A DNA stretch of 64,000 nt from the NCBI GenBank assembly GCA_024683775.1, contig GCA_024683775.1_4106.1. The stretch is one strand, 5' to 3'. The DNA comes from a phage. Under the pieces are notes generated by a model, which did no database searches, was not told where the DNA came from, and saw only the letters and a program-made list of their open reading frames with translations. How positions within the stretch are numbered: position 1 is the stretch's first letter; each line of letters opens with the position of its first letter. Shown here one piece after another: positions 38,654-63,617 of this stretch. Position numbers and translations under genes: made by a program.

Positions 38654-39082
38654 ATGAATATCGAACAAACTATCCGTAACCACTCTTTCTTCGCTGCTGA
38701 AACTGGTCGTGTAATCGAGAGCGTCAAAATTGAAGAACTGATGATTAACGTTAAATATAAAGAACTGAATGATGAGATTAGCAGCACCATTTGTGCACTA
38801 CGTGCTCCATTCCGTTCTGAAGCAGCTAAGAAACCTGCCTATGTACTGGCGATTGCATTGGGTTGTGTAGTGAAATTGGTCGTTGATGAAAATCAACTAA
38901 ATATCAAAGTTGCTCCAACCAACGATGAAGAAAACATCGACCTGAACTTTGAAGGTAATCTGGCTGAAGACGTATTCTTCCAACAATCACTGGTTTATGA
39001 TTTCCGTACCGTAACTCATGACCATATCAACTTTGTCAATGAGATGGTTGACATTGTAGCTGAATACGAAGCTTCCCTATAA
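38654..39082 (+). CDS. FQxS-motif paralogue family member
   Basis: C-terminal EDVFFQQSLVYDF motif. Confidence 0.5.
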   Translation: MNIEQTIRNHSFFAAETGRVIESVKIEELMINVKYKELNDEISSTICALRAPFRSEAAKKPAYVLAIALGCVVKLVVDENQLNIKVAPTNDEENIDLNFEGNLAEDVFFQQSLVYDFRTVTHDHINFVNEMVDIVAEYEASL

Positions 39083-39094
39083 TTAGATTAACAA

Positions 39095-39119
39095 AAGCCT
39101 CCGTAATGGGGGCTTTTTC
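39095..39119 (+). terminator. intrinsic terminator
   Basis: AGCCTCC-loop-GGGGGCT hairpin followed by TTTTT. Confidence 0.55.
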
Positions 39120-39138
39120 CAACATAAGGATATGAATA

Positions 39139-39690
39139 ATGATTGACCAAATTAAAATCCTAACTGAACAAATCACTGATTTTCTAGCAGATAAAGATGG
39201 ATTCAGTACTGAAGTTAAAATGCATGGTGTTAGTCTCGATGTAACTGCACCAAATGGTGAAACAACCAATTATGATATGTATGAAATCCTACTTTATACA
39301 TTGGCTGTTCGTAAACTTGGTAGTGATATTGAACTGAACATTAACAAAACCGAGAACGGTGACCAAGTGTTTGCAATCAACACTGGTGCACAAATGGACG
39401 TAGTAGCTGAAATCAACAAGATCAACCAATCTTTTGTGGGTTTCAAGCATGATACAATCCAATCTGTGTTCCTGGGTAAACAAACCGGAAACAGCCACTG
39501 TCCTTATTGTGTAATGACAACCTATAAAAATGGTAACTGGATGCGTCAGGATCTAGTACTTGCAGAAATGCTTTATGCAATCACTCACGGCCTAGAACTT
39601 GAACTTGATGATAGTGTTTACTGTTTCAAGAAAATCCGTAAACTTTCTGGTGATATACAAGCTCAATTAAAAGAATTAAATGATAAATAA
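39139..39690 (+). CDS. hypothetical protein
   Basis: ORF after AAGGATATGAATA. Confidence 0.5.
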   Translation: MIDQIKILTEQITDFLADKDGFSTEVKMHGVSLDVTAPNGETTNYDMYEILLYTLAVRKLGSDIELNINKTENGDQVFAINTGAQMDVVAEINKINQSFVGFKHDTIQSVFLGKQTGNSHCPYCVMTTYKNGNWMRQDLVLAEMLYAITHGLELELDDSVYCFKKIRKLSGDIQAQLKELNDK

Positions 39691-39802
39691 TTATACCAGT
39701 AATGGTTAACATTATCATGTTACTTTCCTCCCTTACATAATAATGATGCGTTATTATTTTATTGTATTATTCCCCTTTTTTGTACAAAATCTTTTTCGTA
39801 CT

Positions 39803-39826
39803 GCCCCGACCTTCGGGGCATTTTTC
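39803..39826 (+). terminator. intrinsic terminator
   Basis: GCCCCGA-CCT-TCGGGGC hairpin followed by ATTTTT. Confidence 0.7.
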
Positions 39827-39847
39827 TTGTCTAAATTTTGAGGTTCT

Positions 39848-40243
39848 ATGAATAATACTATTGGTAGTACAATATCTAAACCACTCTCTTATTACCTTGA
39901 AAAATTCAGAAGTACAAATGGTAAAAAATTTAATGGTATATACCAATTCTCACATAAAGAATATATCACAGTTGATTGTTATTCAAATAAACTTATGTAC
40001 GTAGATGATACTGAATACTGTATGAAATTGTCATTGGATGTAGAATTAGATAAGTTAACATTTATTGAATATACATCCAAAAGAACATCATTTCTTGGGA
40101 AATGTAATCGAAAAGTATATAAAAATATTTCAATGTACTTAAATGAAGATTACCACTTCCAACAAACAACGATTGAAGATGTTCTATTCAGTACTGAAGA
40201 ATTGAAAGAACTGTATCACTGGTATAAGCAATTCACATCTTGA
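39848..40243 (+). CDS. FQxS-motif paralogue family member
   Basis: EDYHFQQTTIEDV motif. Confidence 0.5.
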   Translation: MNNTIGSTISKPLSYYLEKFRSTNGKKFNGIYQFSHKEYITVDCYSNKLMYVDDTEYCMKLSLDVELDKLTFIEYTSKRTSFLGKCNRKVYKNISMYLNEDYHFQQTTIEDVLFSTEELKELYHWYKQFTS

Positions 40244-40268
40244 CATTATCGTGGGTTTATCCTACAAT
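40240..40268 (+). promoter_or_regulatory. sigma70-like promoter TTGACA-17-TACAAT
   Basis: Consensus spacing. Confidence 0.55.
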
Positions 40269-40298
40269 GTAAGATAATGATACATAGAGGATAAATTT

Positions 40299-40709
40299 AT
40301 GAGTTTAGATTTACACAATGAACTAAAATATTATTTCGATTTGGATATATCACATTTGAACCAACACGTCAATTATATGACTAGTACTATGTGGTGGTCT
40401 GATGAGTTTGATGAACCAAAAATCCAACTTTGTGGTGATTTGTCTGTTTTGAGGTTGTATGCCCTTGATTCGGAAATGAATATCAAGATCACATACATCC
40501 CATACACAAACAAACTTATTGTAAACACCCTAAACCCAGTTACCGTATTGAAAATTTCTGATTTGGACACGATACAGTCAGATGAATCACTATTCCAACG
40601 TTCTTTGATTGATGATATGGGTGGTATTTTATATGAAGATATTGTACAATTGAAGAAGATGTATAGTGAATTGTTAGAAATTAAAAACACAGTAATTGTG
40701 GGGAGTTGA
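40299..40709 (+). CDS. FQxS-motif paralogue family member
   Basis: DESLFQRSLIDDM motif. Confidence 0.55.
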   Translation: MSLDLHNELKYYFDLDISHLNQHVNYMTSTMWWSDEFDEPKIQLCGDLSVLRLYALDSEMNIKITYIPYTNKLIVNTLNPVTVLKISDLDTIQSDESLFQRSLIDDMGGILYEDIVQLKKMYSELLEIKNTVIVGS

Positions 40710-40710
40710 T

Positions 40711-41115
40711 ATGGTAAGTTTACTTGATATTGATAATACCAGTCTAGTACTGGTAAAAAAAGGTGTAATTCCCAATTCTACAAAAATTGATTATGCAGTT
40801 ATTGAAACAAATATTGGAAATATCTGGTATGACTCCGAAAGGGATATTGTGATTAGCTGCGTAGACAGTGACCGTGCTGAGTGTTGTAGGGTTGGTCATG
40901 ACGGGCAATTTATTTTCGAATTCCGTTACTGGAAAGATGCTAAATTCCATCATGAGCATGTTTCAATTACAGGTGTGTATTGCACCGAAGAATCGTTCTT
41001 CATGGATAGTACTGTTAATGATTTTGGTTCAGTTACATTTGAGTACTATAAAAAAGTATACAACGTATCCAGAGAAGTAATGCGAATCATCAGAAATGCT
41101 GAGGGTCAAGATTAA
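40711..41115 (+). CDS. FQxS-motif paralogue family member
   Basis: EESFFMDSTVNDF motif; start moved to ATG at 40711 after GGGGAG. Confidence 0.5.
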   Translation: MVSLLDIDNTSLVLVKKGVIPNSTKIDYAVIETNIGNIWYDSERDIVISCVDSDRAECCRVGHDGQFIFEFRYWKDAKFHHEHVSITGVYCTEESFFMDSTVNDFGSVTFEYYKKVYNVSREVMRIIRNAEGQD

Positions 41116-41116
41116 C

Positions 41117-41491
41117 ATGACTACTATATATGACATTTTAGGTGACTTGAATAAAAATATAGATAATGATTTTGTTATTGTTCAAGATACTAGAAATTTA
41201 TTTCAACTACCAATAGGTTCACCAGATAGGTTAATTTTTAATAGATACGCAAAAACACTGACATACCTACACGATGGTATGGTTATATTGGTACTTGATA
41301 TTAAAGAAAATACAATACGATATGCATATGACTTCAAAGATTATTGGTCAAGAACCCATAGTATTGATATTGAGGAAGAGGAACTATTCCAATTGTCATT
41401 GATTGAGGAAAATGTAATAGGAATTACAGAAATTGATATTGTTAAAAAAGCATTAGACTATACAAATATAAAAATTAATGGTGAGCTATGA
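41117..41491 (+). CDS. FQxS-motif paralogue family member
   Basis: EEELFQLSLIEEN motif; start moved to ATG at 41117. Confidence 0.5.
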   Translation: MTTIYDILGDLNKNIDNDFVIVQDTRNLFQLPIGSPDRLIFNRYAKTLTYLHDGMVILVLDIKENTIRYAYDFKDYWSRTHSIDIEEEELFQLSLIEENVIGITEIDIVKKALDYTNIKINGEL

Positions 41492-41943
41492 TGGAAATTG
41501 ATGAAATAAAAAATCATTTTGAAATTGCATTGTCTTGTAAATTTGATGGCTCTTATGTTCCTGATCCAGAAGAGATAATTAGAATTTCCACATCGTTTTC
41601 GGAAGAGTACAATGTTCTTATTGAGAAAACATATGACAGTACGGAACTCGCATTTTACAATAAGAATTCACGAACAACAACATTTATATTATTATATAAC
41701 ACAACATCGGATTTAATAGAAATTATAACATGTAAAACAATCAAAGATGTACATTATGAGACTATATCAAATGTGAGTTATTGTTCAACTGAAGAAGGAT
41801 ACTTTCAGGAATCTCTTGTTAAAAATTTAACAGTTAGTTATTCTGATTTAAGCACTATAATCAATTGTGTTGAAAAGCTAAATGATTTCGTTCTATCTAT
41901 GTTTGATATCACAGAGCAAAACCCGAAGGTAATCAAATGCTAA
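41488..41943 (+). CDS. FQxS-motif paralogue family member
   Basis: EEGYFQESLVKNL motif. Confidence 0.55.
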   Translation: MMEIDEIKNHFEIALSCKFDGSYVPDPEEIIRISTSFSEEYNVLIEKTYDSTELAFYNKNSRTTTFILLYNTTSDLIEIITCKTIKDVHYETISNVSYCSTEEGYFQESLVKNLTVSYSDLSTIINCVEKLNDFVLSMFDITEQNPKVIKC

Positions 41944-42392
41944 ATCCAGGACAGTTTTTCCATTTACTTAGTATTACACCTATACCGGATTTAATCAGTG
42001 AAGCGAATCAATATCGTGATATAGGAATTGTATCTATGGAATACGATTCACCTGACTTTAAATGTTACGTAACATATGATTTGGTAGCCTATGAGTCAGA
42101 AACTGAGATAAAAAAACCATCATACATTTTTGTGTTCATATATAATGATTATAGTGGTGATCTACTCAATGATGTTCATATTGACACATTTGAAATATGT
42201 GATAATATTATAACAGATGATTCATCATGTACATTTGATTTATCAGAAAACAGTACTGAAGAGGCACTTTTTCAGTTGAGTACTGTTAGTGACACTGTAC
42301 TAACTCTTGATGACATTGAGAAATTTAAAGAACAGCTTGACGCAGTACGTGAGATGTTCTATAATCATTATCCAGAAATCGAGTTCAAATAA
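41937..42392 (+). CDS. FQxS-motif paralogue family member
   Basis: EEALFQLSTVSDT motif. Confidence 0.55.
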   Translation: MLNPGQFFHLLSITPIPDLISEANQYRDIGIVSMEYDSPDFKCYVTYDLVAYESETEIKKPSYIFVFIYNDYSGDLLNDVHIDTFEICDNIITDDSSCTFDLSENSTEEALFQLSTVSDTVLTLDDIEKFKEQLDAVREMFYNHYPEIEFK

Positions 42393-42406
42393 CTAAAGGT
42401 ATCAAA

Positions 42407-42667
42407 ATGACTAAAGTAGTTCGTAAACGCCACATGATGAACATGGATGAATTTCGCACCTTTGACAAATACCGTACTATGTTTCGTATGCTGTCACAGG
42501 GCCGTCCAATCGTCATTGTAACGGAGAATTACATGTCACCTGAGATGATGTTCGGTAATTATGAAAAGGTCTTCATGTTGTACGTGAAGCGTGAATTGCT
42601 AACGATTAAGACCTTAGCTGAAGCTACAGATGAAGATATGGATGGTGATAATACATTTACCATGTGA
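42407..42667 (+). CDS. hypothetical protein
   Basis: ORF. Confidence 0.45.
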   Translation: MTKVVRKRHMMNMDEFRTFDKYRTMFRMLSQGRPIVIVTENYMSPEMMFGNYEKVFMLYVKRELLTIKTLAEATDEDMDGDNTFTM

Positions 42668-42706
42668 GGAAATATATGGCAGAAAAACCAAAAGAACCAT
42701 TGGACC

Positions 42707-42997
42707 GTGATGATGATTTTTACGACGAACGATATGGGGAATCAGATGAGTGAACATCGTGCAGTACTTAAAAAGATTTTAAATGAACTTGGTGATGAGT
42801 TTAATGTTACTGAAGAAGAATATCAATGTTGGAAGAAGGATTTTGAACTCCTTGCTGAGTATGATAAAGTCTTCAATATGATTGGTGTCATTAGCCAGTA
42901 CTTACTTGGTGGTGGTCGAGCCAGTGCTTCAATTCTTGCATCTGCGATCATCTGTACTTCTCGATGGTGCGATGAAAAAAGTCTGGAAGATTTCTAA
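42707..42997 (+). CDS. hypothetical protein
   Basis: ORF. Confidence 0.4.
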   Translation: MMMIFTTNDMGNQMSEHRAVLKKILNELGDEFNVTEEEYQCWKKDFELLAEYDKVFNMIGVISQYLLGGGRASASILASAIICTSRWCDEKSLEDF

Positions 42998-43002
42998 ATA
43001 AG
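42990..43002 (+). promoter_or_regulatory. extended -10 promoter (TGcTATAAT)
   Basis: GATGCTATAAT upstream of the methyltransferase gene. Confidence 0.45.
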
Positions 43003-43049
43003 ATGCTATAATGTATTATAGTACCTTAACAATATAAAAAGGATTTTAT

Positions 43050-43910
43050 ATGAAACCTATCAGAGTACTGTCACTTTTTAATGGAATGAGCGTTGGATAT
43101 ATGGCATTGGCAGATGCAGGTATTCCAGTTGAAAAATATTACTCATCTGAAATTGACAAGTACGCAATTGCTGAATCTTCCGAGAATTTTCCTGATATTA
43201 TCCAGTTAGGTGATGTGACTAAGTGGAAAGAATGGGATATTGAGTGGGATAAGATAGATTTACTCATGGGAGGATTCCCATGTCAAGCCTGGTCTGTTGC
43301 TGGTAAGCAAGGTGGCTTGAATGATATACGTGGACAGTTATTTTTGGTTATGGTTGATATTTTTGAGCACATCAAAAGTGTAAATCCAAACTTGCAATTT
43401 CTGTTCGAGAATGTTAAAATGAAGGAAGATTTCAAAGAATACATTAATAGTATTTTAGGAATCACACCAGTACTGATAAATTCCCAGCATTATACGCCTC
43501 ACTTCAGGCAGAGATACTACTGGTGCAGTACTGATAAGCTTTTTATACCACCTGCATTATCAAATGCCCCTAAACTTCAAGATATCATTGAAGATGGTTG
43601 GTATACTGACAGAACCGCTTCGTACTGTATAGATGCTAACTATTTTAAGGGTGGTGATTGTAACCAGTACTTTAATAAATCAAGACGACAGTTGGTGTTT
43701 CGTGACCCAACGATTAATCGTCAATATCTATTGGAGAATGGTAAAAGAAATATTGACTATAGACACTTAAGTGTAGTAGAATGTTGTAAATTACAGGGTA
43801 TTCCTGTAGATTTCTTTAAAGTGTCTAGTAAGACACAAGCATACAAAATGCTTGGGAATGGATGGACTATGCCAGTTATATCACACTTACTAAGAGAGAT
43901 ATTCTTTTGA
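43050..43910 (+). CDS. DNA (cytosine-5)-methyltransferase
   Basis: Motif I LFNGMSVG, motif IV GFPCQ, motif VI ENV, QxRxR-like FRQRYY, motif X LGNGW. Confidence 0.8.
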   Translation: MKPIRVLSLFNGMSVGYMALADAGIPVEKYYSSEIDKYAIAESSENFPDIIQLGDVTKWKEWDIEWDKIDLLMGGFPCQAWSVAGKQGGLNDIRGQLFLVMVDIFEHIKSVNPNLQFLFENVKMKEDFKEYINSILGITPVLINSQHYTPHFRQRYYWCSTDKLFIPPALSNAPKLQDIIEDGWYTDRTASYCIDANYFKGGDCNQYFNKSRRQLVFRDPTINRQYLLENGKRNIDYRHLSVVECCKLQGIPVDFFKVSSKTQAYKMLGNGWTMPVISHLLREIFF

Positions 43911-43912
43911 AC

Positions 43913-44392
43913 ATGAAGAACTACCCCACCTATACTGAACGTGTAATGAAATTTCAACGTCAGTCATCAAAGGAAGAATTAGAATTTAATTTGTACTATC
44001 CTAATATTGGTGATGAGGTATTCTATTGTTCTCATACAAAGAATGGAACTTTACTTAAATCTGGTAAAGGTATTATTGTTGATATGATTAGCACTTTCAA
44101 AGGTAAACTTAATGTAATGTACAAAGTACAAGATTCAAGTACTGAGTGCATTCATGAAGTGATGCATAATATACCTGCATATCCAAAGGATTTTGTTGAG
44201 CTAATATCTCGAAGGGAGAAACCTATGTTTTATTGTGGTTATGACAAACTAACCAAACAAATTATTCCTAATACTATGGGAAAATTTAAAAGTGATGTTA
44301 AAACTGAACTTAATAAGAAATTAGGTTCATCATGGGAAACTGAAAACGAATTCATCGAAATTCGTTTGATTGAAGTTACTATACTCGATTAA
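43913..44392 (+). CDS. hypothetical protein
   Basis: Track ORF 43862 overlaps the methyltransferase; ATG at 43913 directly follows its stop. Confidence 0.45.
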   Translation: MKNYPTYTERVMKFQRQSSKEELEFNLYYPNIGDEVFYCSHTKNGTLLKSGKGIIVDMISTFKGKLNVMYKVQDSSTECIHEVMHNIPAYPKDFVELISRREKPMFYCGYDKLTKQIIPNTMGKFKSDVKTELNKKLGSSWETENEFIEIRLIEVTILD

Positions 44393-44398
44393 TTACAG

Positions 44399-44422
44399 AT
44401 CCACGCTATGCGTGGATTTTTC
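44399..44422 (+). terminator. intrinsic terminator
   Basis: ATCCACGC-TAT-GCGTGGAT hairpin followed by TTTTC. Confidence 0.65.
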
Positions 44423-44434
44423 ATAGGTGCATAT

Positions 44435-44950
44435 ATGACAGTTCCTTATGTTAAAATTATTAATAATATCCTTGATTCGTGGGAAGATGTTATTACTGGT
44501 AAAAAGAACCCAATGCCAGTACACGCACTAACCGGAAGACTACAATTCAGAACGTCAAACAAAACTGAAACTTTTAATAATCATGATGTTCACATTACTA
44601 TAAAATCACCTGTACGTATTGTAATTAAAAAAAATCAAGATGATGAATTGACATTATCTATTGGTAGTGATAAAATCATTTTGAGTAATTTATCCGAAGA
44701 AGAATTCTTTCAACGTAGTACTATCATCGATATGAAAGATTTCACATATGAATCATTGGTTGAACTCAATACACGTTTCAACGATATTCAGGAACGATTG
44801 CGACCAATCCTCGGTAAAGAAGAGGAAGCCTGGAATGAAAGTGTGAGAAAGATGCAAGAAATGTTGAAAGAAAATATTAACAATCTGGGTAAAGCTACAA
44901 TGGAATTTGGTAAATCTTTTAAACTGAACTTTTCAAAGGATCGTAAATGA
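44435..44950 (+). CDS. FQxS-motif paralogue family member
   Basis: EEEFFQRSTIIDM motif; start moved downstream of the terminator hairpin. Confidence 0.5.
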   Translation: MTVPYVKIINNILDSWEDVITGKKNPMPVHALTGRLQFRTSNKTETFNNHDVHITIKSPVRIVIKKNQDDELTLSIGSDKIILSNLSEEEFFQRSTIIDMKDFTYESLVELNTRFNDIQERLRPILGKEEEAWNESVRKMQEMLKENINNLGKATMEFGKSFKLNFSKDRK

Positions 44951-45402
44951 AAATTGATAATTTGATTCATGTCTTAGGGACTTTACATAAAATATTATCT
45001 CATGTAGATGAGATAAAGAAACTGGGACTTAACATCTCAAATTCAATTGAAACTACATTTAAATATCAATCAATTACTGGTGATGGTTATTACATAATCG
45101 AATATACTTATGAAACCGATCCAGACTTCTATCCTCTTACGTTGAGAATTTATCCAACAAATCCGAGAGGAATTCACGACATATCATCAATTTCACTTGA
45201 TCCAGATGGTGAAACGAGTATTGAATACAATAATGATTCAAAACCAGAATTTTACATTGATGATATTAAAAAGTTGTTCAATGATGAATATGTTTTCCAA
45301 CAAAGTACTGTGCATGATGTTGGTAGTACTACTGGGCAATTTTGGAATACATGTTATTATCATATGATTGAAATTTGTAAATTACTAAAAGGTGTTGAAT
45401 AA
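44947..45402 (+). CDS. FQxS-motif paralogue family member
   Basis: DEYVFQQSTVHDV motif. Confidence 0.55.
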   Translation: MKIDNLIHVLGTLHKILSHVDEIKKLGLNISNSIETTFKYQSITGDGYYIIEYTYETDPDFYPLTLRIYPTNPRGIHDISSISLDPDGETSIEYNNDSKPEFYIDDIKKLFNDEYVFQQSTVHDVGSTTGQFWNTCYYHMIEICKLLKGVE

Positions 45403-45785
45403 TGAAATACTGCATTGAAGTACATTACACTACAGGTGATACTGAAAATTGTTATGACGTTCTTAATACAATTGATATTCAATGGTCTTCTAAAGAGGAA
45501 GCAGTTGCTGCTTTACAGTGCCTAAAAGAGCATTGGGTGTTTTATATGAAGCAAGATAATTGCTATACAAAAGAACACGAAACGATCATGGAAAATGCTA
45601 AACAAAAAGAGTGGTTTGACCCAATATCACCAGAATATTCATTCTTAGTTAAAGTTGGTGATGTGACAGTTCCATTACGAACACCGTGGAACGGCTACTT
45701 TGAAACTCTTCATAATGCACGAGTTGTCGCTGTTGATAACCCTGAACAAATCGATTTCGATTCATTGGACTGGAAAAAACTATGA
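45402..45785 (+). CDS. hypothetical protein
   Basis: ORF. Confidence 0.45.
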   Translation: MKYCIEVHYTTGDTENCYDVLNTIDIQWSSKEEAVAALQCLKEHWVFYMKQDNCYTKEHETIMENAKQKEWFDPISPEYSFLVKVGDVTVPLRTPWNGYFETLHNARVVAVDNPEQIDFDSLDWKKL

Positions 45786-46225
45786 CAGTACTGCACCGAT
45801 TGAAGAAGGTTAAGCATCCAGTTGTATATGAGGACTGGAAACGACAGAAGTTGCTGGGTGATTTTTATTACCCAAAATCTAAAGTTCTTGCGAATTCAAG
45901 ATGTACATATTGCACACATAATGATAAAGATACAGTATTTGTCGAAATGGGTTTCCATCCATCAAACACAATGTTCACTACTAACCAAACGTTTTACAAA
46001 TTTCATATACAAAAAGATTCATTTACTGTTATGATTATAAAACATTTAGTTGAAGATCTGGCATTCAGTGAAGAACGAGTACCTTTATCATTAGTGGATA
46101 TTCCTTATAATAATTTAGAGGAAATGTACTTCCAACAGTTGACAGTACAAGAAAACTTTGGTATGATAGGACTTCAAGAGTTAGAGATGATTAAGCAAAT
46201 TCGTGATATCTACTTTAAGGAGTAA
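45782..46225 (+). CDS. FQxS-motif paralogue family member
   Basis: EEMYFQQLTVQEN motif. Confidence 0.55.
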   Translation: MTVLHRLKKVKHPVVYEDWKRQKLLGDFYYPKSKVLANSRCTYCTHNDKDTVFVEMGFHPSNTMFTTNQTFYKFHIQKDSFTVMIIKHLVEDLAFSEERVPLSLVDIPYNNLEEMYFQQLTVQENFGMIGLQELEMIKQIRDIYFKE

Positions 46226-50619: not shown

Positions 50620-51012
50620 ATGACTGAATCTGAACTACGTGAAATGATAGATTTCATTTATGAAATGGTGCAAGATAAAAATAACATCAATACAATTATT
50701 TCTGGTCCAAGACAAATTGGTAACCAAATGACATATTCTTTATCTTTGTGGATAAACCAGAACTACAAAGTTGATTGTTTGTATTTTCGTCCTGATATTG
50801 ATGCTTATTATTTTGTAAATCATGATGCATTAATGAAACCAAATAAGCGTCCAGTTGATGATGCCTTTGTGACGCACCCATTTTATCTGGCTGATTCCGA
50901 AGAAGATGAGTTTCAAAAGAACACAACGTTAAGCCCAGGTGAAATTTGCATCCCTTACACACTAAAAGATAAAATGATTTACATCACAGAAGTTATGAAA
51001 ACATGCTGGTAA
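50620..51012 (+). CDS. hypothetical protein
   Basis: ORF after AAGGAAATAAA. Confidence 0.5.
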   Translation: MTESELREMIDFIYEMVQDKNNINTIISGPRQIGNQMTYSLSLWINQNYKVDCLYFRPDIDAYYFVNHDALMKPNKRPVDDAFVTHPFYLADSEEDEFQKNTTLSPGEICIPYTLKDKMIYITEVMKTCW

Positions 51013-51060: not shown

Positions 51061-51279
51061 ATGAAATTTATTAATTTTGATATTTCTAAGGTCAAAGAAT
51101 TATTTGTAAGAAATGCAGTTTATGATATCATGTTACATAACGGTACTGTACAAGAAGATGTTGTATTGTTTTCGTTTGATGGTGAAAATCTCGAAACTAT
51201 ATATAAATTCAGCAACTTAGATGGTGACTTTTGGGAAACCAGTGCTGTTAAAATGTATAGAATTAAAAAGGAGCATTAA
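51061..51279 (+). CDS. hypothetical small protein
   Basis: ATG at 51061 after AGGAGGATAT. Confidence 0.45.
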   Translation: MKFINFDISKVKELFVRNAVYDIMLHNGTVQEDVVLFSFDGENLETIYKFSNLDGDFWETSAVKMYRIKKEH

Positions 51280-51280
51280 T

Positions 51281-51769
51281 ATGCCAATTCGTGGTGTCCC
51301 AGAACCATTAACTGAAGTTATTAAGCATGTTCGCATTGGAGATCGAGAAGTTAATCTGCGACGTGGTAATATATATTACTTTAAAACTTCAGATATGAGT
51401 TCTGTGCAGATTGTCATTGGTACATCTATTATGATTACTCGCGTACTTGATGGTAGTACTGACTTCGTTGGGTACAATGTACTTACTAATAAAGTAACAC
51501 ATACATATAAATGGAGTGGATATAAAACTATTAAGTATGAATTTGACTTAGCTAGAACTGAAGAAGAACGATTTATGCTGAGTACTATCAATCCAGCAAA
51601 CTATCCAGATCTTGATGCATTTTTGCTAATTTTAAAATTGTATAATGAAGCAAATCAGAAAGCTAAAGAGTATGATAGAATCATGTATGAACGCCGAAAA
51701 GAACGTGCACAAAAAAGTTATGATCTGTATGATAGCCCATACGTGAAATATAGTAAGGGGTCGAAATGA
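51281..51769 (+). CDS. FQxS-motif paralogue family member (divergent)
   Basis: EEERFMLSTINPA motif; ATG at 51281 after AAGGAGCATTAAT. Confidence 0.45.
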   Translation: MPIRGVPEPLTEVIKHVRIGDREVNLRRGNIYYFKTSDMSSVQIVIGTSIMITRVLDGSTDFVGYNVLTNKVTHTYKWSGYKTIKYEFDLARTEEERFMLSTINPANYPDLDAFLLILKLYNEANQKAKEYDRIMYERRKERAQKSYDLYDSPYVKYSKGSK

Positions 51770-52170
51770 ATAAAGAAGTTCAAATTATCATAACTCCACC
51801 TATACAAAGTCTGGATGTATCCATTAGTGATTTTTTGGAAAAATACTATGAATGGTTTAATGAAGATTCAGTAATTTATAACCATTCATTACCTGATGGT
51901 TTCGTTGAGCTTATTGAATTAAATGCCAAATCACTATACTTCTGTGTTGAATACAATGATTATATGACAGATGAAGCATATCGTTTTCGTTGTACATTGT
52001 ATCCTAACCATTTTTCCATTGGTTATAAAGACTATCAGTACTGCACCACAAACTATAGTGTAGAGGAAGAATTTCAGTACAATTTACTTTATCCTGATTT
52101 AGATTATACGATTGCAGTACTGTTGACTAAAATCATGGATTTTTATAAAGATAAATATAATGCATCCTAA
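51766..52170 (+). CDS. FQxS-motif paralogue family member (divergent)
   Basis: EEEFQYNLLYPDL motif. Confidence 0.45.
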   Translation: MNKEVQIIITPPIQSLDVSISDFLEKYYEWFNEDSVIYNHSLPDGFVELIELNAKSLYFCVEYNDYMTDEAYRFRCTLYPNHFSIGYKDYQYCTTNYSVEEEFQYNLLYPDLDYTIAVLLTKIMDFYKDKYNAS

Positions 52171-54171: not shown

Positions 54172-54763
<592 letters not shown>

Positions 54764-54767
<4 letters not shown>

Positions 54768-55155: not shown

Positions 55156-55533
<378 letters not shown>

Positions 55534-56258: not shown

Positions 56259-56262
56259 AATC

Positions 56263-56352: not shown

Positions 56353-56356
56353 ATTA

Positions 56357-56429: not shown

Positions 56430-56438
56430 CAAAAAAAA

Positions 56439-58136
<1,698 letters not shown>

Positions 58137-58206
58137 AATATTCTCCTGAATTTTCTAAAAGTTATAATAATATTTAGTTACAATATTTATGATATAGATT
58201 AAAAAG

Positions 58207-58236
58207 TTGAAATGTGTTCAAAAAATGTGGTATAAT
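58207..58236 (+). promoter_or_regulatory. sigma70-like promoter TTGAAA-18-TGgTATAAT
   Basis: Consensus elements with extended -10. Confidence 0.55.
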
Positions 58237-58261
58237 ACCTCTGTTGTTCACGGAAAGATTA

Positions 58262-58484
<223 letters not shown>

Positions 58485-58493
58485 TCAAAATTC

Positions 58494-58575
<82 letters not shown>

Positions 58576-58584
58576 TAAAACAAA

Positions 58585-58668
58585 TGGTAGTTAGCATATC
58601 GGCCTTATGCAACGGACTGTTAATCCGTGTCAGAAATGACAAGACTGGTTCGACTCCAGTACTACCAG
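58585..58668 (+). tRNA. tRNA with anticodon GTT (Asn-type) but a 15-nt variable arm
   Basis: Acceptor TGGTAGT/ACTACCA, D arm GCAT...ATGC, anticodon arm ACGGA-CTGTTAA-TCCGT, variable hairpin GTCA-GAAA-TGAC, T arm ACTGG-TTCGACT-CCAGT. Confidence 0.6.
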
Positions 58669-58733
58669 CAAAACAATCATGAACCTCGGAACAATAAATA
58701 ATATCATACAGGATATTATGAGGTCTAAGGTTC

Positions 58734-59276
58734 ATGGGACGAAAACAATCAGAAGAAACACGTAAAAAAATAGCTGAATCATTAAAGGCTAAAAGTTCTA
58801 AATTACCAGAGAATGAAATAATTCAAAAATATTTAAATGGTATGCCAATTTACGGTTTAGCCAAAGAATATAAGTGTAATAGATCAAGAATAAATGATAT
58901 CGTTGAATCACATGGTGTTAAACGACCAAAATCAACCAATGAAATGCGATTTTGTGAAATACACAATAAGAATTATGAATTAAATTCACAAGGTAAATGG
59001 AAATGTTTAAAATGTGACAGTCAACGTGTTTCTGATAGACGTAGAAAATTAAAAATACTAGCCGTTGAATACAAAGGCGGTTGTTGTGAAAAGTGTGGAT
59101 ATGATAAATGCATTGCCGCATTAGAATTCCATCATGTTGATCCTTCACAGAAAGATTATTCAATTAGTCAAGAAGGTGCAACTCGTTCTTTTGAAAAAAT
59201 TAAAATAGAACTGGATAAATGTATTATGGTTTGTGCAAATTGTCATCGTGAGATTCATGATGATGAACGACAATAA
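58734..59276 (+). CDS. HNH homing endonuclease (Mob-like, NUMOD3-type N-terminus)
   Basis: GRKQSEETRKKIAESLK motif; C-terminal CxxC ... HHVD ... CANCH. Confidence 0.75.
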   Translation: MGRKQSEETRKKIAESLKAKSSKLPENEIIQKYLNGMPIYGLAKEYKCNRSRINDIVESHGVKRPKSTNEMRFCEIHNKNYELNSQGKWKCLKCDSQRVSDRRRKLKILAVEYKGGCCEKCGYDKCIAALEFHHVDPSQKDYSISQEGATRSFEKIKIELDKCIMVCANCHREIHDDERQ

Positions 59277-59279
59277 TTT

Positions 59280-59549
<270 letters not shown>

Positions 59550-59557
59550 GAATTTAA

Positions 59558-59959
59558 ATGAAAAAGAATGACTTGATCAAAATGCTTCAAGAGATTGACG
59601 GCAATCCAGAGATTGTTATTTGGAATGGATATGTCGATGATTATATGAACATCGAAAAAGGCTTGACTAAAATCACTCTAGTCAAAGAAACTGAACAGTT
59701 CCTTCTGGAAGCATTAGTGCACGAATGGTGCAAACGTAACAATACATTCGACATTCCAGAAGATCAACGAACTAAGATTGCAGAACAAGCTAAAAAACTT
59801 CATAAGAAACGTGAATACGATTTCCAGAACCCACATGTTACTGAAGACGAATTCAATCACTGGTACGGTAAAAAGAAATTGACAAAATATGTCATTTCAC
59901 CTAAACTACGTGGTAAGACTTCACTTGGTGTCTTCAACGCCGCTGACTTAAACTACTAG
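59558..59959 (+). CDS. hypothetical protein (paralogous N-terminus with 59972..60187)
   Basis: MKKNDLIKMLQEIDGNPEIVIW versus MKAKDLIKILQNNPEADILIH. Confidence 0.45.
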   Translation: MKKNDLIKMLQEIDGNPEIVIWNGYVDDYMNIEKGLTKITLVKETEQFLLEALVHEWCKRNNTFDIPEDQRTKIAEQAKKLHKKREYDFQNPHVTEDEFNHWYGKKKLTKYVISPKLRGKTSLGVFNAADLNY

Positions 59960-59968
59960 CGGGTATTA

Positions 59969-60236
<268 letters not shown>

Positions 60237-60281
60237 GATTCCCGATTCAGTAGCTTATAAAGCAGTTCCGTGTGTGCCTAT

Positions 60282-60334
<53 letters not shown>

Positions 60335-60335
60335 T

Positions 60336-60373
<38 letters not shown>

Positions 60374-60392
60374 AGAGGTACTTCGAGTATGC

Positions 60393-60501
<109 letters not shown>

Positions 60502-60520
60502 AAATCTTAGTAAGAAAATA

Positions 60521-60723
<203 letters not shown>

Positions 60724-60870: not shown

Positions 60871-61296
60871 ATGACATACAACATTGTTAAAATGGTGAAC
60901 TACGTATTAAAAAACAACGCATGGTCACTACATGATGTACAATTAAAAGATATTGGTGAAGTTAGAGTTTTTTGCTATGATGACGATTTGAACGAAACCA
61001 CTGATTTGAGTAAATGTTTTAATATTTTTCTTGGTTATGAAATCAATGATCATTTTTATTCATTTGATGTGTATTTTGAACGAGTTAAAATCAGAATTTA
61101 TTCAGTAGATAATGATTTTTATGATTATGATAACGAATCAATTGAATTGAATTTTAACGATATTGATACTGAAGAAAAATTCTTCCAGTACTGTCTCGTA
61201 AACGATCTAAATGGATTGACATTTGAGGACATTAGTGCTATCCTTAAAGTTAAAAGATTGATTCCAGAAGAGGTTCCAAATCCGTTTAATGACTAG
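60871..61296 (+). CDS. FQxS-motif paralogue family member
   Basis: EEKFFQYCLVNDL motif. Confidence 0.55.
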   Translation: MTYNIVKMVNYVLKNNAWSLHDVQLKDIGEVRVFCYDDDLNETTDLSKCFNIFLGYEINDHFYSFDVYFERVKIRIYSVDNDFYDYDNESIELNFNDIDTEEKFFQYCLVNDLNGLTFEDISAILKVKRLIPEEVPNPFND

Positions 61297-61648
61297 TTTA
61301 ATAACTCGTATAATGCAAGATGTTCGTAAGAATCTTTATACTGGTAATTTTGATGATCCTAACATAAAAATATTATGTTATGATGTATTCACACTGGTAC
61401 ACCCATCTGAATCTAATAATATATACATAGCATATACTTCTCCTGATATTTTGTATCAATTTGATTTATATAGTACAATGGCTAAGATAACATTAGATGT
61501 TTCTAAGGAGCCATTTTTTATAGCAGTACATGATTTTGAGTACACAGAAGAGTCATTATTCCAGTACTCAATGATAAATGACATTGGTGACTTGACATTA
61601 GAAGAGATAAATGTTATAGTTGGTATGTGTCGTTTGATTAATCCATAA
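61289..61648 (+). CDS. FQxS-motif paralogue family member
   Basis: EESLFQYSMINDI motif. Confidence 0.55.
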   Translation: MTSLITRIMQDVRKNLYTGNFDDPNIKILCYDVFTLVHPSESNNIYIAYTSPDILYQFDLYSTMAKITLDVSKEPFFIAVHDFEYTEESLFQYSMINDIGDLTLEEINVIVGMCRLINP

Positions 61649-61661
61649 CTCGGAGCTTAAT

Positions 61662-61853
61662 ATGTTTTTGAATTTGTTATGCTTATTTGGTCGTACATTG
61701 GTTCTTGCTATTATTCATACACCTGGTATTCGTAATTATGTTTCTTATGAATTTAAGAAAAATTACCACAACAACACTGAAGTTCGTGTAACTAAGATGT
61801 GCAAAGACTTCAATGGAGATGTTCAACCATTCAAGAAGTACGAGGATGAATAA
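61662..61853 (+). CDS. hypothetical small protein
   Basis: ORF. Confidence 0.4.
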   Translation: MFLNLLCLFGRTLVLAIIHTPGIRNYVSYEFKKNYHNNTEVRVTKMCKDFNGDVQPFKKYEDE

Positions 61854-62137
61854 TGGAATTTATTGTTGCACCTGATGAACTAAAAACATTCACGTTCCGA
61901 GACAATAACAATTATCCTTATATAAATCATTCATTGAATTCATTGCATGTTATTTCAATCATTGCATCTGAATACAGAGACAATCCATGTATTGATTTTA
62001 AAACCACTGATGGTGAATATACATGGGTAGTTCCGAACGATAAATACAGTTATCAGGGTGCAGTGGAGATCCGCGACTCGATTCTAAAGCAAATCGAAGA
62101 TGGACATACTCATCCTAAACTAAACATTCAGTACTGA
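61853..62137 (+). CDS. hypothetical protein
   Basis: ORF. Confidence 0.45.
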   Translation: MEFIVAPDELKTFTFRDNNNYPYINHSLNSLHVISIIASEYRDNPCIDFKTTDGEYTWVVPNDKYSYQGAVEIRDSILKQIEDGHTHPKLNIQY

Positions 62138-62152
62138 AATCGTTTAACCGGA

Positions 62153-62198
62153 TAGCTTCTAGTCGGTACTGAATTCCTCCTTTTGTCTAGAAGCTATC
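62153..62198. repeat. 12-bp inverted repeat GATAGCTTCTAG / CTAGAAGCTATC enclosing a 22-nt loop
   Basis: Perfect inverted repeat in a non-coding stretch; adjacent TTCAGTACTGAA palindrome at 62140. Confidence 0.5.
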
Positions 62199-62328
62199 AC
62201 TCTTTTAAAGTATAATGATATCACCCTCATGGTTCATTATATTCGTTACCCTCTAACAGTATCTTTTTTATTCCTCTTTGATACTGTATTTTAGAAGTTG
62301 ACATTTTTACTTCTACTGTGTTATACTT

Positions 62329-62360
62329 AAGGCTGATTCATAATGAATCGGCCTTTTTTT
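62329..62360 (+). terminator. hairpin plus U-run between a promoter-like site and the next ORF (terminator or attenuator)
   Basis: AAGGCTGATTCA-TAA-TGAATCGGCCTT followed by TTTTTTT; TTGACA-17-TATACT at 62298..62326. Confidence 0.55.
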
Positions 62361-62378
62361 CTTGTGGGGATTAATGTA

Positions 62379-62795
62379 ATGAATAAAGAAGTTATTAGTT
62401 TAATGGATGAGTATATCAACCAAACATATCGTTTTATATTTTTTAATGCATTTGAGTCCAGAACAACGTATTATTCTGGTGAATATGAGATAATAACTGG
62501 ATCATTTCTTAACGGATACATGGAGTTTTTAGAACAAAGCGATAATGTGTTCATTTCCATATCTGAAAAACATGGTAATGATTATGTTATTGATATGTGG
62601 CCTAATAAAGTAGAGATTGATACCACGCACAAAATCGTAATTGATGTGGATGAATCGTTGTATGATTTAACTGAAGATATGTACATGCAACTAAATTTCG
62701 TATACGATCTAACTAACATAAGTTATTCTAATCTAAGTAAATTATTTTATATTTGTGGTGTACTACATAAAAACGTACAACAAAATAAAGGATAA
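62379..62795 (+). CDS. FQxS-motif paralogue family member (divergent)
   Basis: EDMYMQLNFVYDL motif; track start 62343 lies in the hairpin, so ATG at 62379 is used. Confidence 0.5.
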   Translation: MNKEVISLMDEYINQTYRFIFFNAFESRTTYYSGEYEIITGSFLNGYMEFLEQSDNVFISISEKHGNDYVIDMWPNKVEIDTTHKIVIDVDESLYDLTEDMYMQLNFVYDLTNISYSNLSKLFYICGVLHKNVQQNKG

Positions 62796-62803
62796 ACATT
62801 TAA

Positions 62804-63208
62804 ATGTTGAAAATTCCACCACATACACTATCTATGCTAATTGAAAATGGTGTAATATTTTCTGAAGGGTGTAGTTCATTCTATACATGTGACGTAGACC
62901 CGTATACATTTGAATACCGTTCATTTAAAAATACATTGAGTGTTCCATGTGAAGCTTCTGACAACATTGTACTTGTCGTTTCGTTCTATGGTGTGCCAAA
63001 ATTCTTCATTGATATATATTATGATTCTTTTAAGATACAAACATACGATCATTTTCTTGGTGAAGTGCTCTTGCAAATGCAGATTGAACATGTTACTATA
63101 GATGAAGATATGTTCTTTCAGCTATCTACATTATACGATATGTGTGGATTGTCAGTTGACAACATAAATGGTATATTTGAAATTGCCAGAAACCTACGAG
63201 GAAGATGA
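62804..63208 (+). CDS. FQxS-motif paralogue family member
   Basis: EDMFFQLSTLYDM motif. Confidence 0.55.
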   Translation: MLKIPPHTLSMLIENGVIFSEGCSSFYTCDVDPYTFEYRSFKNTLSVPCEASDNIVLVVSFYGVPKFFIDIYYDSFKIQTYDHFLGEVLLQMQIEHVTIDEDMFFQLSTLYDMCGLSVDNINGIFEIARNLRGR

Positions 63209-63209
63209 T

Positions 63210-63617
63210 ATGAATAAAATTTTAAGTGATAATGAGGTTGATATTGTCATTGATGTGCTTGAAAACAGTAATACATTTGAGAAGAAACACAGTACTGTAT
63301 ACTTCGGTAAAGATTGCTGGTTGAGCTATATATCTGATAATTCGTTTGTAATTCGTGTTGAAACGGGTGATATTGGATTTACGGTACATGCGGCACATAC
63401 CAAAACTGATAAACAAATCACTGTTATTGCTGACACGCCAAGTATCTGGGATAGAATTGATGATTGTGAACACTACACGTCAACATTCTATGATACAGAA
63501 GAAGAACATTTCATGGATAGTACGGTCAAAGAATTAACTATTCCATTTAAACTTATGAAAGCAGCAAGAGATTTTATTTTAAAATACAAAAAAATAGGAG
63601 TTGATGATGCAATTTAA
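63210..63617 (+). CDS. FQxS-motif paralogue family member
   Basis: EEEHFMDSTVKEL motif; start moved to ATG at 63210 after GAGGAAG. Confidence 0.5.
   Translation: MNKILSDNEVDIVIDVLENSNTFEKKHSTVYFGKDCWLSYISDNSFVIRVETGDIGFTVHAAHTKTDKQITVIADTPSIWDRIDDCEHYTSTFYDTEEEHFMDSTVKELTIPFKLMKAARDFILKYKKIGVDDAI

Follow-up and report, generated by a model that had tools for sequence, protein, structure and literature searches.

The 64,000-nucleotide stretch of phage DNA analysed here (the window) contains 20 paralogous genes that are real, look expressed, and belong to one ancient family, whose proteins have in common the motif [TS]-E-E-x-[FYL]-F-[QM]-x-S-[TL]-[VIL]-x-[DN], some 35-45 residues before the C-terminus. 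The preliminary description had reported at least 19 such paralogs in tandem runs on the + strand; the family exists and is larger than first stated, with exactly 20 motif-bearing ORFs (119-182 aa), all on the + strand, in runs at 38654-42392 (7 members), 44408-46225 (3), 50620-52170 (3), 54402-55533 (2), and 60871-63617 (5). Judged by sequence, the source is an Asteriusvirus jumbo coliphage (RaK2-like, about 350-380 kb, host E. coli) and not a classical T4-like phage, as had been supposed; the window is 99% identical to WPEC5 and about 87% identical to 121Q.

Members of the family in the window

The coordinates below are those of maximal ORFs, six of which likely start slightly downstream, according to the 121Q annotation, at the positions given with each; E denotes the leave-one-out HMM E-value of that member. 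The first run opens with member 1 (38654..39082, 142 aa, motif AEDVFFQQSLVYD, E 1e-7), the orthologs of which are gene 80 in 121Q (86.6% amino acid identity) and a RaK2 protein with 47.6% identity (E 3e-46). It continues with member 2 (39848..40243, 131 aa, NEDYHFQQTTIED, E 7.5e-5), member 3 (40299..40709, 136 aa, SDESLFQRSLIDD, E 2.6e-7), which lies downstream of a sigma-70-like site at 40240-40268, and member 4 (40696..41115, maximal ORF 139 aa, TEESFFMDSTVND, E 2.7e-8), for which 121Q gene 85 points to a start at 40711. Member 5 (41096..41491, 131 aa, likely start 41117, EEEELFQLSLIEE, E 8e-7), member 6 (41488..41943, 151 aa, TEEGYFQESLVKN, E 1.6e-8), and member 7 (41937..42392, 151 aa, pI 4.05, TEEALFQLSTVSD, E 8e-8) complete this run.

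The second run consists of member 8 (44408..44950, 180 aa, likely start 44435, SEEEFFQRSTIID, E 3e-6), which has a long Lys/Glu-rich C-terminal extension, member 9 (44947..45402, 151 aa, NDEYVFQQSTVHD, E 2.6e-4), and member 10 (45782..46225, 147 aa, LEEMYFQQLTVQE, E 6.7e-5). In the third run, an HMM that includes relatives from outside the window gave E-values of 5e-5 for member 11 (50620..51012, 130 aa, SEEDEFQKNTTLS, E 7.8e-4), the weakest member, 2e-10 for member 12 (51221..51769, 182 aa, likely start 51281, TEEERFMLSTINP, E 9.7e-4), which carries a basic C-terminal tail (pI 9.4), and 4.5e-8 for member 13 (51766..52170, 134 aa, SVEEEFQYNLLYP, E 8e-3). The fourth run comprises member 14 (54402..54767, 121 aa, TEEEYFQTSTVQE, E 1.5e-6), with a sigma-70-like site upstream at 54343-54370, and member 15 (55156..55533, 125 aa, DAEDEFQKSTVYE, E 1.4e-5).

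The last run begins with two neighbours that are mutual best BLASTP matches, member 16 (60871..61296, 141 aa, TEEKFFQYCLVND, E 4.7e-13) and member 17 (61289..61648, 119 aa, TEESLFQYSMIND, E 5.8e-12). These are followed by member 18 (62343..62795, 150 aa, likely start 62379, TEDMYMQLNFVYD, E 2.8e-8), upstream of which lie a sigma-70-like site (62298-62327) and a terminator-like hairpin (62329-62355), member 19 (62804..63208, 134 aa, DEDMFFQLSTLYD, E 7e-8), and member 20 (63168..63617, 149 aa, likely start 63210, TEEEHFMDSTVKE, E 9e-6). In 121Q, further small hypothetical genes follow the member 20 ortholog, beyond the window end; no family member lies immediately downstream, and the next match is at about 95 kb. 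As had been described, the arrays are interleaved with a C5-methyltransferase gene (43050-43910), two HNH endonuclease genes (55545-56102 and 58734-59276), and 7 tRNA genes.

Leave-one-out HMMs recovered all 20 members, with E-values for the omitted member from 5e-13 to 8e-3, and the best non-member among the 338 window ORFs scored 0.03-0.5. The HMM including outside relatives picked exactly the 20 members and found nothing at 1-38 kb of the window. Searched with a strict regular expression, the + strand gave 18 motif matches, every one inside a family ORF and 32-84 residues before the stop, and the - strand gave none in any frame. In the alignment the motif occupies homologous positions across the members, and over 119 sequences conservation is 98% for F, 93% and 90% for the two E, and 88% for both Q and S. 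Within the motif, Phe is encoded by TTC (10) or TTT (9), Gln by CAA (10) or CAG (7), and Ser by both the AGY and the TCN families, indicating that the conservation is at the protein level and not at the DNA level. Outside the motif the divergence is high, since BLASTP at E<1e-3 detected only 7 of 190 pairs of window paralogs. Most family proteins are acidic (median pI about 4.5), and a few are basic (pI 7.9-9.4).

Predicted fold and the motif helix

Each gene is predicted to encode a small, soluble, single-domain protein. The AlphaFold model of member 17 is of high confidence (pLDDT 92.2, pTM 0.84; motif helix 87-96), and a first model, of member 16, has the same order of elements, supporting a common fold of an N-terminal helix, a five-stranded antiparallel sheet (up to seven strands in some members), and a C-terminal helix-loop-helix. 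The N-terminal 100 or so residues had been described as highly divergent; the divergence holds, whereas the notion of a non-homologous remainder does not, because the HMM alignments and the AlphaFold models span the whole protein as a single domain.

In both independent models the motif makes up the first of the two C-terminal helices, at a pLDDT of about 90-94 and with structured elements on either side. In the models, T/S would serve as the N-cap, E-E would occupy the first turn, F, [TL], and [VIL] would form the packing face, and Q, S, and D are predicted to make conserved polar contacts. Free variation is confined to positions 4, 8, and 12 of 13, a single stripe (i/i+4/i+8), and this periodicity, together with the predicted helix, suggests that the motif provides the common scaffold with its folding core. 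Conservation extends roughly three quarters of the way around the helix and takes in the polar residues Q, S, E, E, and D; this exceeds the needs of simple packing and may instead reflect a shared interaction surface. In the family alignment, no conserved residues suggestive of catalysis were seen; since nothing is conserved beyond the motif, an enzymatic role is unlikely.

Distribution, evolution, and comparison with known families

The complete 121Q genome contains 60 family matches, or 68 after one iteration, about three times the count in the window; all are on the + strand (0 of 307 ORFs on the - strand matched the HMM), and they make up about 10% of its genes. The family is confined to RaK2-like jumbo phages of about 310-390 kb (54 of 50,697 phage records) that infect Escherichia, Klebsiella, Salmonella, Pectobacterium, and Erwinia, plus one Xanthomonas phage. 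In IMG/VR, a DNA pattern for the motif matched only 5 of 2.9 million contigs, these being 345-378 kb long. When 1.84 billion cluster representatives were searched with a profile, 119 clusters (62-217 aa) matched at E<=1e-3, 115 of them with the motif, and the longest relatives inspected showed no domain fusions.

All 20 window members have syntenic orthologs in 121Q. The median dN/dS between them is 0.27 and every pair is below 1, so the genes are under purifying selection, although they evolve faster than the neighbouring genes (0.15, p = 0.003). Between orthologs, conservation peaks in the motif (88% identity versus 72% and 77% for the flanks). In the RaK2/121Q comparison, the nearest relative was a cross-genus ortholog in 36 of 43 cases and a paralog in the same genome in 2, and cross-genus orthologs are kept at 28-48% identity. 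Gene order in the RaK2 array matches that of 121Q block 1, and such collinearity across genera indicates that the expansion is old.

The preliminary description recognised no named family, and none emerged here: searches of Pfam, NCBIfam, and PADLOC with the window members gave no match, and PHROGs returned only families of unassigned function. Each member matches at least one phrog (for example phrog_17453, 24941, 24321, 23322, 21500, and 24510), with E down to 1e-104 for some. These are the same proteins, divided into about 25 unnamed groups; PHROGs records neither the motif that unites them nor their relationship as a superfamily. A structural search with the AlphaFold models gave no significant match, the weak best neighbour being the MAM33/p32/gC1qBP fold (PF02330; PDB 1p32, 3qv0, 7te3). 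DUF4909 (PF16253; PDB 4lqz), a Staphylococcus lipoprotein family of similar length, has an invariant LDDEVFHLSAL that aligns with TEEEFFQxSTV, but the hhalign probability is 1.2% over just 32 columns, 4lqz is absent among the structural matches, and its lipoprotein signal peptide is lacking in the phage family.

Two known systems resemble the arrays in organisation. In bacterial polyimmunity loci, reportedly described by Zhang, Iyer, and Aravind in 2011, divergent small immunity proteins (SUKH/Imm families) form tandem arrays. Here too, small, acidic, divergent alpha+beta paralogs without catalytic residues are arrayed on one strand, and a similar role, with each copy neutralising a different effector, is a plausible functional analogy; unlike such loci, the phage family has no SUKH/Imm Pfam match at E<=1 and no adjacent toxin genes. 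The Zn-ribbon family of the jumbo Bacillus phage G likewise consists of many tandem small single-domain copies with a function proposed from context, and its roughly 35 copies were called unprecedented (Iyer et al. 2021, PMC7824862), compared with the 60-68 in 121Q. The present family, unmentioned in the main text of that paper, is alpha/beta, lacks metal-binding residues, and belongs to another phage clade.

Candidate functions

Early-type promoters had been noted at several copies, and strong sigma-70-type sites (11 of 12 matches) do immediately precede the members at 40299, 54402, and 62343. The window holds 7 perfect TTGACA-N16-18-TATAAT sites, compared with an expectation of 0.23, and all 7 are on the + strand; the enrichment is limited to near-perfect sites, as the total of promoter-like sites is not above the shuffled expectation. 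RpoD-like promoters of the related phage CBB are concentrated in a region of short hypothetical ORFs, which its authors take to be early genes (PMC5259590). The literature searched contained no experiments on timing, localisation, partners, or phenotype of any member.

Our preferred reading, held tentatively, is that the family supplies diversified cytoplasmic binders, made early and sharing one scaffold, for host takeover or anti-defence. The genes would be organised as translationally coupled operons and transcribed by the host RNA polymerase early in infection. Through its divergent sheet and loops, each paralog would target a host (or phage) macromolecule of its own, so that the paralogs together might provide a fixed repertoire of binders. 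A rather unlikely alternative is that the motif helix is a common surface for docking or oligomerisation, joining the members to each other or to one hub, either a host complex (RNA polymerase, chaperone/protease) or a phage factor, with the variable part as cargo or adaptor. The 71-93% conservation of the polar E, E, Q, S, and D in a 13-residue helix that varies at three positions, and the status of the motif as the most conserved segment between orthologs, are consistent with such a surface. In addition, the terminal helices of p32/Mam33, the nearest structural matches although weak ones, mediate assembly into obligate trimers, and ClpA-like, ClpP-like, HslV-like, and chaperone-like genes annotated in 121Q are candidate hubs.

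The same residues had prompted a comparison with Gln-Ser protease sites, in which E-x-x-[YF]-F-Q-x-S would be cut by a 3C/potyvirus-like or phage protease to release the last 35 or so residues as a peptide. The motif does resemble the TEV/potyviral NIa site, ENLYFQ(S/G), at P6 (acidic), P3 (aromatic), P2 (Phe), and P1 (Gln). However, it is predicted to be a buried, packed helix and not an exposed linker, P1' is the most variable column with Ser at P2', and M replaces Q in 11% of sequences. The proteases annotated in 121Q are ClpP-like, HslV-like, gp21-like, and a 'metallopeptidase', the window counterpart of which matches an exoribonuclease family instead; none is 3C-like, and cleavage at the motif is thus highly improbable. 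Delivery with the DNA as virion proteins, like the T4 internal proteins, is only slightly less doubtful. Small, acidic, multi-copy proteins would suit a large myovirus, and jumbo-phage virions are rich in minor proteins, 54-93 being reported for relatives (PMC3622015; PMC7318152). Nevertheless, every family ORF of 121Q is annotated as 'hypothetical protein' and 0 of 60 as structural, although many other CDSs there are labelled 'structural protein'; the conserved element is C-terminal and helical and not an N-terminal targeting peptide; and the genes sit where the sigma-70 promoters are and not among late genes. Least credible of all is that the ORFs are spurious, with the motif a repeated DNA element or the copies decaying duplicates, for which nothing speaks except the absent annotation; this is refuted by the synonymous codon differences and both Ser codon families in the motif, dN/dS below 1 in 20 of 20 ortholog pairs, cross-genus retention, strict strand bias, and the confidently predicted fold.

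Overall, paralogy, divergence, and promoters stand from the earlier interpretation, and the protease site and the non-homologous N-terminal part do not. Host-takeover or anti-defence effectors, as first proposed, would be compatible with all of the results here. An old, stable, collinear repertoire under purifying selection would not be the pattern of a fast arms-race accordion, and a housekeeping role in the biology of the phage would fit equally well.

Membership and extent of the FQxS family

A strict regular expression for the FQxS motif, applied in six frames, matched 18 + strand ORFs of the window, 32-84 residues before the stop codon, and nothing on the - strand in any frame. Two further ORFs, at 51221-51769 and 51766-52170, carry one-off variants of the motif, TEEERFMLSTINP and SVEEEFQYNLLYP. 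The 20 members in total, named here by start coordinate, lie in five runs at 38654-42392, 44408-46225, 50620-52170, 54402-55533, and 60871-63617 (ORF starts are maximal-ORF calls).

The members were first chosen by eye and were then checked by a leave-one-out test with 20 HMMs, each built without one member. The left-out member scored E = 5e-13 to 8e-3, and the best non-member among the 338 window ORFs scored E = 0.025-0.56. An HMM derived mostly from relatives outside the window recovered the same 20 ORFs and no others, with no family member in the 1-38 kb portion. These results bear out the expanded paralog family of at least 19 copies claimed in the preliminary description, and its motif proved positionally homologous, occupying identical alignment columns in all 20 members. 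The codons within the motif vary (Phe, TTC 10 and TTT 9; Gln, CAA 10 and CAG 7; Ser, AGT 7, TCA 3, TCT 3, and AGC 1, with both serine codon families present). This synonymous variation indicates that conservation acts on the protein and does not reflect a DNA repeat.

The arrays also contain embedded + strand ORFs of unknown function (39139-39690, 45402-45785, and 61662-62137; phrog_15745 and phrog_10176), which keep a fixed position within the arrays and are conserved with 121Q, a complete Asteriusvirus reference genome (KM507819), at 98% identity for 45402-45785. The possibility that interleaved ORFs are degenerate members was rejected, because 39139-39690, 45402-45785, and the other interleaved non-members went undetected by the family HMM and fall into other phrogs.

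Over 38654-46225, the window shared 99.3% identity with Escherichia phage WPEC5 (381 kb), 95.8-98.6% with nine further coliphages, and ~87% with 121Q, the Asteriusvirus type, whose record gives the taxonomy Caudoviricetes; Asteriusvirus. Judged from sequence, the window phage is a jumbo myovirus of the RaK2-like type, about 350-380 kb in size. The earlier assignment to the T4-like phages was therefore replaced by Asteriusvirus, although the replication and morphogenesis genes of the phage are distantly related to those of T4.

In the complete 121Q genome, where the 937 ORFs of 60 aa or more were all searched with the family HMM, 60 ORFs matched at E<=0.01 and 68 after one iteration. All matches were on the + strand, with none among the 307 - strand ORFs, and nearly all contained the motif. 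The first-pass matches comprised 20 at 58-81 kb, the block corresponding to the window, two at 95-101 kb, 33 at 160.7-189 kb, one at 200 kb, one at 239.7 kb, and three at 255.5-257 kb. The family thus accounts for roughly 10% of the ~610 annotated CDSs and is the largest among several paralog expansions in 121Q. Its 60-68 copies exceed the ~35-copy expansion that was termed unprecedented in a 2021 survey of jumbo phages (PMC7824862). Elsewhere in 121Q, a tandem array of ~13 RCC1-like 'DNA condensation' genes was seen on the - strand at 117089-131255 (genes 234-248), and a run of ~17 ORFs of roughly 60 aa each at 131358-135194 (genes 249-265).

Among 1.84 billion cluster representatives, a profile search returned 119 clusters of 62-217 aa at E<=1e-3, and the motif was present in 115 of them; when the alignment was used to query a word-index protein search, close orthologs alone were returned. 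The resulting consensus was [TS]-E-E-x-[FYL]-F-[QM]-x-S-[TL]-[VIL]-x-[DN]-hydrophobic. Named cluster members came from Salmonella phages Munch, SE_PL, and 7t3 and Klebsiella phage fENko-Kae01, all of ~350 kb, and no domain fusions were found in the longest relatives. In a tblastn search, which is too insensitive for copy counts and was used for taxonomic distribution only, a consensus C-terminal peptide matched 54 of 50,697 phage records. Of these, 52 were jumbo phages of 310-386 kb infecting Escherichia, Klebsiella, Salmonella, Pectobacterium, and Erwinia, together with Xanthomonas phage XbC2; the remaining two were shorter records (86 and 94 kb) of Klebsiella and Escherichia phages. Across 2.9 million IMG/VR contigs, a degenerate DNA pattern for the motif had only eight matching stretches; these fell on five contigs (345-378 kb), RaK2 and CBB among them. 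The HMM found 7-9 members per 12-14 kb in these stretches, all on one strand; copy numbers beyond 121Q refer to such sampled stretches only. Overall, the FQxS family is established as real, ancient, clade-specific, and very large.

Predicted fold and comparison with known families

Two members were modelled with AlphaFold. For 60871-61296 (119-sequence alignment; pLDDT 72, pTM 0.63), the model has a helix at the N-terminus, followed by seven short strands and two further helices (101-110 and 118-128). Of these two C-terminal helices, the first is formed by the motif, which is also the best-predicted segment (~94). For 61289-61648, the prediction was stronger (pLDDT 92.2, pTM 0.84, with five of five models at or above 90), with a helix at 4-15, strands at 26-32, 44-50, 55-61, 64-69, and 76-79, a helix at 87-96 (EESLFQYSMI), and a helix at 104-114. 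The same element order in both models points to a single alpha / beta-meander / alpha-alpha domain, and establishes the motif, at the level of prediction, as the core helix of that domain.

In the family alignment, the variable motif positions were 4, 8, and 12 (i, i+4, i+8), which would place them in one solvent-exposed stripe. The T/S preceding E-E would fit a helix N-cap, and the second helix starts with [TS]-x-E-[DE], resembling the motif start, such that both helix starts may be read as capping boxes. No column outside the motif was conserved above ~50%, and therefore no catalytic constellation was seen. The members are mostly acidic (median pI ~4.5), except for three at pI 6.6-7.9 and one at 9.4, two of these four having basic C-terminal tails. 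These proteins are established as small, soluble, acidic, single-domain proteins.

Pfam, NCBIfam, and PADLOC, searched with each of the 20 members, gave no shared match, the only PADLOC hits being three isolated single-member matches at E 0.001-0.05, and in PHROGs the members spread over ~25 phrogs of unknown function. The family is accordingly unnamed, as had been stated earlier. MAM33/p32 (PF02330) was not matched by any of the 20 members in Pfam at E<=1, and neither were the SUKH/Imm models; the array neighbours are a methyltransferase, HNH endonucleases, tRNAs, and hypothetical proteins, rather than the toxin neighbourhood of SUKH/Imm proteins. MAM33/p32 proteins form a doughnut-shaped homotrimer with an acidic face, and of these traits the analysis shows acidity alone for the window members. 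When the family profile was compared with PDB sequences, a marginal match (E 0.35) was obtained to 4lqz, a Staphylococcus DUF4909 protein in which an invariant LDDEVFHLSAL aligns with the motif. Homology was rejected, since the hhalign probability was 1.2% over 32 columns and 4lqz was absent from the structural matches of a fold search that used the weaker of the two models as query. In addition, DUF4909 (PF16253) proteins are lipoproteins with an LSSCG lipobox, whereas the window proteins have no such N-terminus.

Evolution and genomic setting of the copies

The 20 window members pair one-to-one with syntenic 121Q orthologs. Median amino-acid identity to 121Q was 74% for the members versus 88% for other window genes, and median dN/dS was 0.27 versus 0.15 for the neighbouring non-family genes (Mann-Whitney p = 0.003), the whole-window median being 0.08. 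None of the 20 member-ortholog pairs had dN/dS >1. Ortholog identity was 88% in the 13-residue motif, 72% in the N-terminal part, and 77% in the C-terminal part. Purifying selection on each copy, together with faster evolution than in its neighbours, is therefore established.

By contrast with these ortholog relationships, paralogs are barely detectable from one another: BLASTP at E<1e-3 linked only 7 of 190 pairs in the window and 56 of 1770 in 121Q, and only the adjacent pairs 60871/61289 and 62343/62804 were mutual best matches. Because only ~3-4% of paralog pairs are detectable pairwise, BLASTP-based surveys missed the family; the RaK2 paper reported that 'nearly 10%' of gene products are paralogues, with no further detail (PMC3622015), and the supplement of the CBB paper lists small BLASTP paralog sets. 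At the RaK2 locus, ORFs 6164, 7280, 7680, 9210, and 11721 match 121Q 58099, 59744, 60156, 60930, and 64380 in the same order (47.6% identity, E 3e-46, for the first pair). Among 43 members sampled from parts of other genomes, 36 had their closest relative in another genome and not in their own. These sequence relationships indicate that the expansion took place before these genera diverged and that individual copies have been retained ever since, which argues that the copies are not redundant.

The genes described as interleaved with the arrays were all confirmed, namely a C5 cytosine methyltransferase at 43050-43910 (PF00145, E 5e-37), HNH endonucleases with NUMOD motifs at 55545-56102 and 58734-59276, and seven tRNA genes. 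Compared with 121Q, the stretch at 55545-60600 has the two extra HNH/NUMOD homing-endonuclease genes, a tail-fibre-like gene on the - strand, and tRNA calls that are longer or more numerous (three tRNA-Met, several of 79-92 nt by ARAGORN), suggesting that the tRNA cluster was remodelled by mobile elements. The - strand gene (56439-58136, 565 aa), the only sizeable one on that strand in the region, lies between tRNA genes and the two HNH endonuclease genes. At the corresponding position 121Q has no counterpart of it. It had no Pfam match, and in PHROGs it matched phrog_30606 (2e-73), phrog_32409 'tail fiber protein' (3e-44), and phrog_16653 'hydrolase' (4e-41); its appearance is that of a cassette for a depolymerase or tail spike that was inserted among the tRNA genes. 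Farther upstream, an IF3 homolog was seen at 14464-14967 (+; IF3_N, E 1e-15; IF3_C, E 6e-12).

The preliminary description had also assigned own promoters to several copies. Sigma-70 sites with 11 of 12 matches lie 30-50 nt upstream of members 40299, 54402, and 62343, and perfect TTGACA-N16-18-TATAAT sites are enriched, but a generic promoter scan gave no overall enrichment (80 sites versus 77±9 expected; 72 versus 62±7.5). The perfect sites, at 14391, 32589, 46698, 48558, 52823, 52967, and 60462, are all on the + strand and number seven versus 0.23 expected, a count that no shuffle reached; five of them fall between 46.7 and 60.5 kb. It is thus established that the family genes sit among strong sigma-70 consensus promoters. 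The seven perfect sites are striking in that 121Q encodes its own sigma factors (genes 167 and 591). Transcription units are bounded by terminator-like hairpins at 39802 and 62329, and an overlap of 1-8 nt with the preceding stop codon is common among the members (for example, 41488/41491, 41937/41943, 44947/44950, and 51766/51769), which suggests translational coupling within putative operons.

In CBB, RpoD-like promoters cluster where short hypothetical ORFs are found together with a sigma factor, and the authors of that study proposed this as an early, host-takeover region (PMC5259590). In 121Q, the sigma factor of gene 167 lies ~8.5 kb downstream of the array syntenic with those of the window. 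The literature searched gave no transcriptome or expression data for the Asteriusvirus and RaK2-like phages that carry the family.

Possible roles of the family

We favour, at somewhat less than even confidence, the reading that the paralogs are diversified early host-takeover or anti-defence binders on one scaffold. The proteins would be made early, act in the host cytoplasm, and be non-enzymatic; the divergent sheet and loops would give each paralog its own target, and the paralogs together would form a repertoire of such binders, functionally analogous to bacterial polyimmunity arrays. In the main competing explanation, which is unlikely though far from negligible, the motif helix would be a shared docking or oligomerisation surface through which all paralogs converge on one hub, consistent with the unusually well-conserved polar face of that helix.

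The other explanations are poorly supported. It is very unlikely that the members are virion or internal proteins, since none in 121Q is annotated as structural, though many other 121Q CDSs are so labelled, and the conserved element is C-terminal, unlike the N-terminal capsid-targeting sequence of T4-type internal proteins. That they are protease substrates is more doubtful still. The motif agrees with the TEV site at P6, P3, P2, and P1, which had led to an aside on 3C or potyviral cleavage, but P1' varies more than any other column (L 22%, Q 19%, Y 10%, E 8%), with Ser at P2', and the motif Gln is replaced by Met in 11% of sequences. Moreover, the segment is confidently predicted (pLDDT >90) as a helix within a compact domain and not as an exposed extended linker, and the complete 121Q annotation contains no 3C-like protease, its annotated proteases being only ClpP-like, HslV-like, and gp21-like ones and one 'metallopeptidase', whose counterpart in the window gave a match (E 5e-9) to the Rv2179c-like 3'-5' exoribonuclease family instead. 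We regard the likeness to the TEV site as coincidental. Least probable of all is that the ORFs are spurious, given the purifying selection on each copy.

A link to a phage Clp system was dropped as evidence, because the window counterpart of the 121Q 'ClpS' had no Pfam match. The annotations of 121Q genes 48 and 67 as 'ClpS protease adapter' and 'metallopeptidase', corresponding to window 14981-15526 and 32667-33356 (+), are not backed by the Pfam results for these window counterparts. In 121Q, genes 464, 473, 475, and 581 are annotated as two ClpP-like proteins, one ClpYQ/HslV-like protein, and a ClpA-like ATPase; with annotated GroES-like and DnaJ-like proteins, these would form a phage-borne proteostasis set.

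The family sequences are already public as 'hypothetical proteins', and paralogs in these phages have been noted before; neither the family nor its motif, size, or fold was found described in the Pfam, NCBIfam, PADLOC, and PHROGs annotations or in the literature searched. Multigene expansions specific to one lineage are familiar from large viruses, and the family itself is new. Only 79 of 534 RaK2 genes were annotated (PMC3622015), and most genes of RaK2-like jumbo phages are without an assigned function; about one in ten now falls into a single recognisable family with a predictable structure. Given the profile and the high-confidence model, the ~60 'hypothetical proteins' of each genome become a single tractable problem, and the natural variants on one scaffold offer a ready panel for binding, toxicity, and anti-defence screens. 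The host effects are of practical interest, as such phages are in development for therapy against E. coli, Klebsiella, and Salmonella. Should the fold prove truly new, it would merit an entry in Pfam or as a DUF.

In a bolder extension of the binder reading, which we consider improbable, the ~60 FQxS proteins might be an anciently fixed, polyimmunity-like arsenal with an undescribed fold, in which each paralog would act against a different host target, be it a nuclease, a toxin, a defence effector, or a host machine to disable. If true, this arsenal would rank with the largest repertoires dedicated to counter-defence or host takeover that have been described in a bacteriophage, and would account for about a tenth of the 'dark' genes in RaK2-like jumbo phages and for the broad enterobacterial host ranges of these phages.
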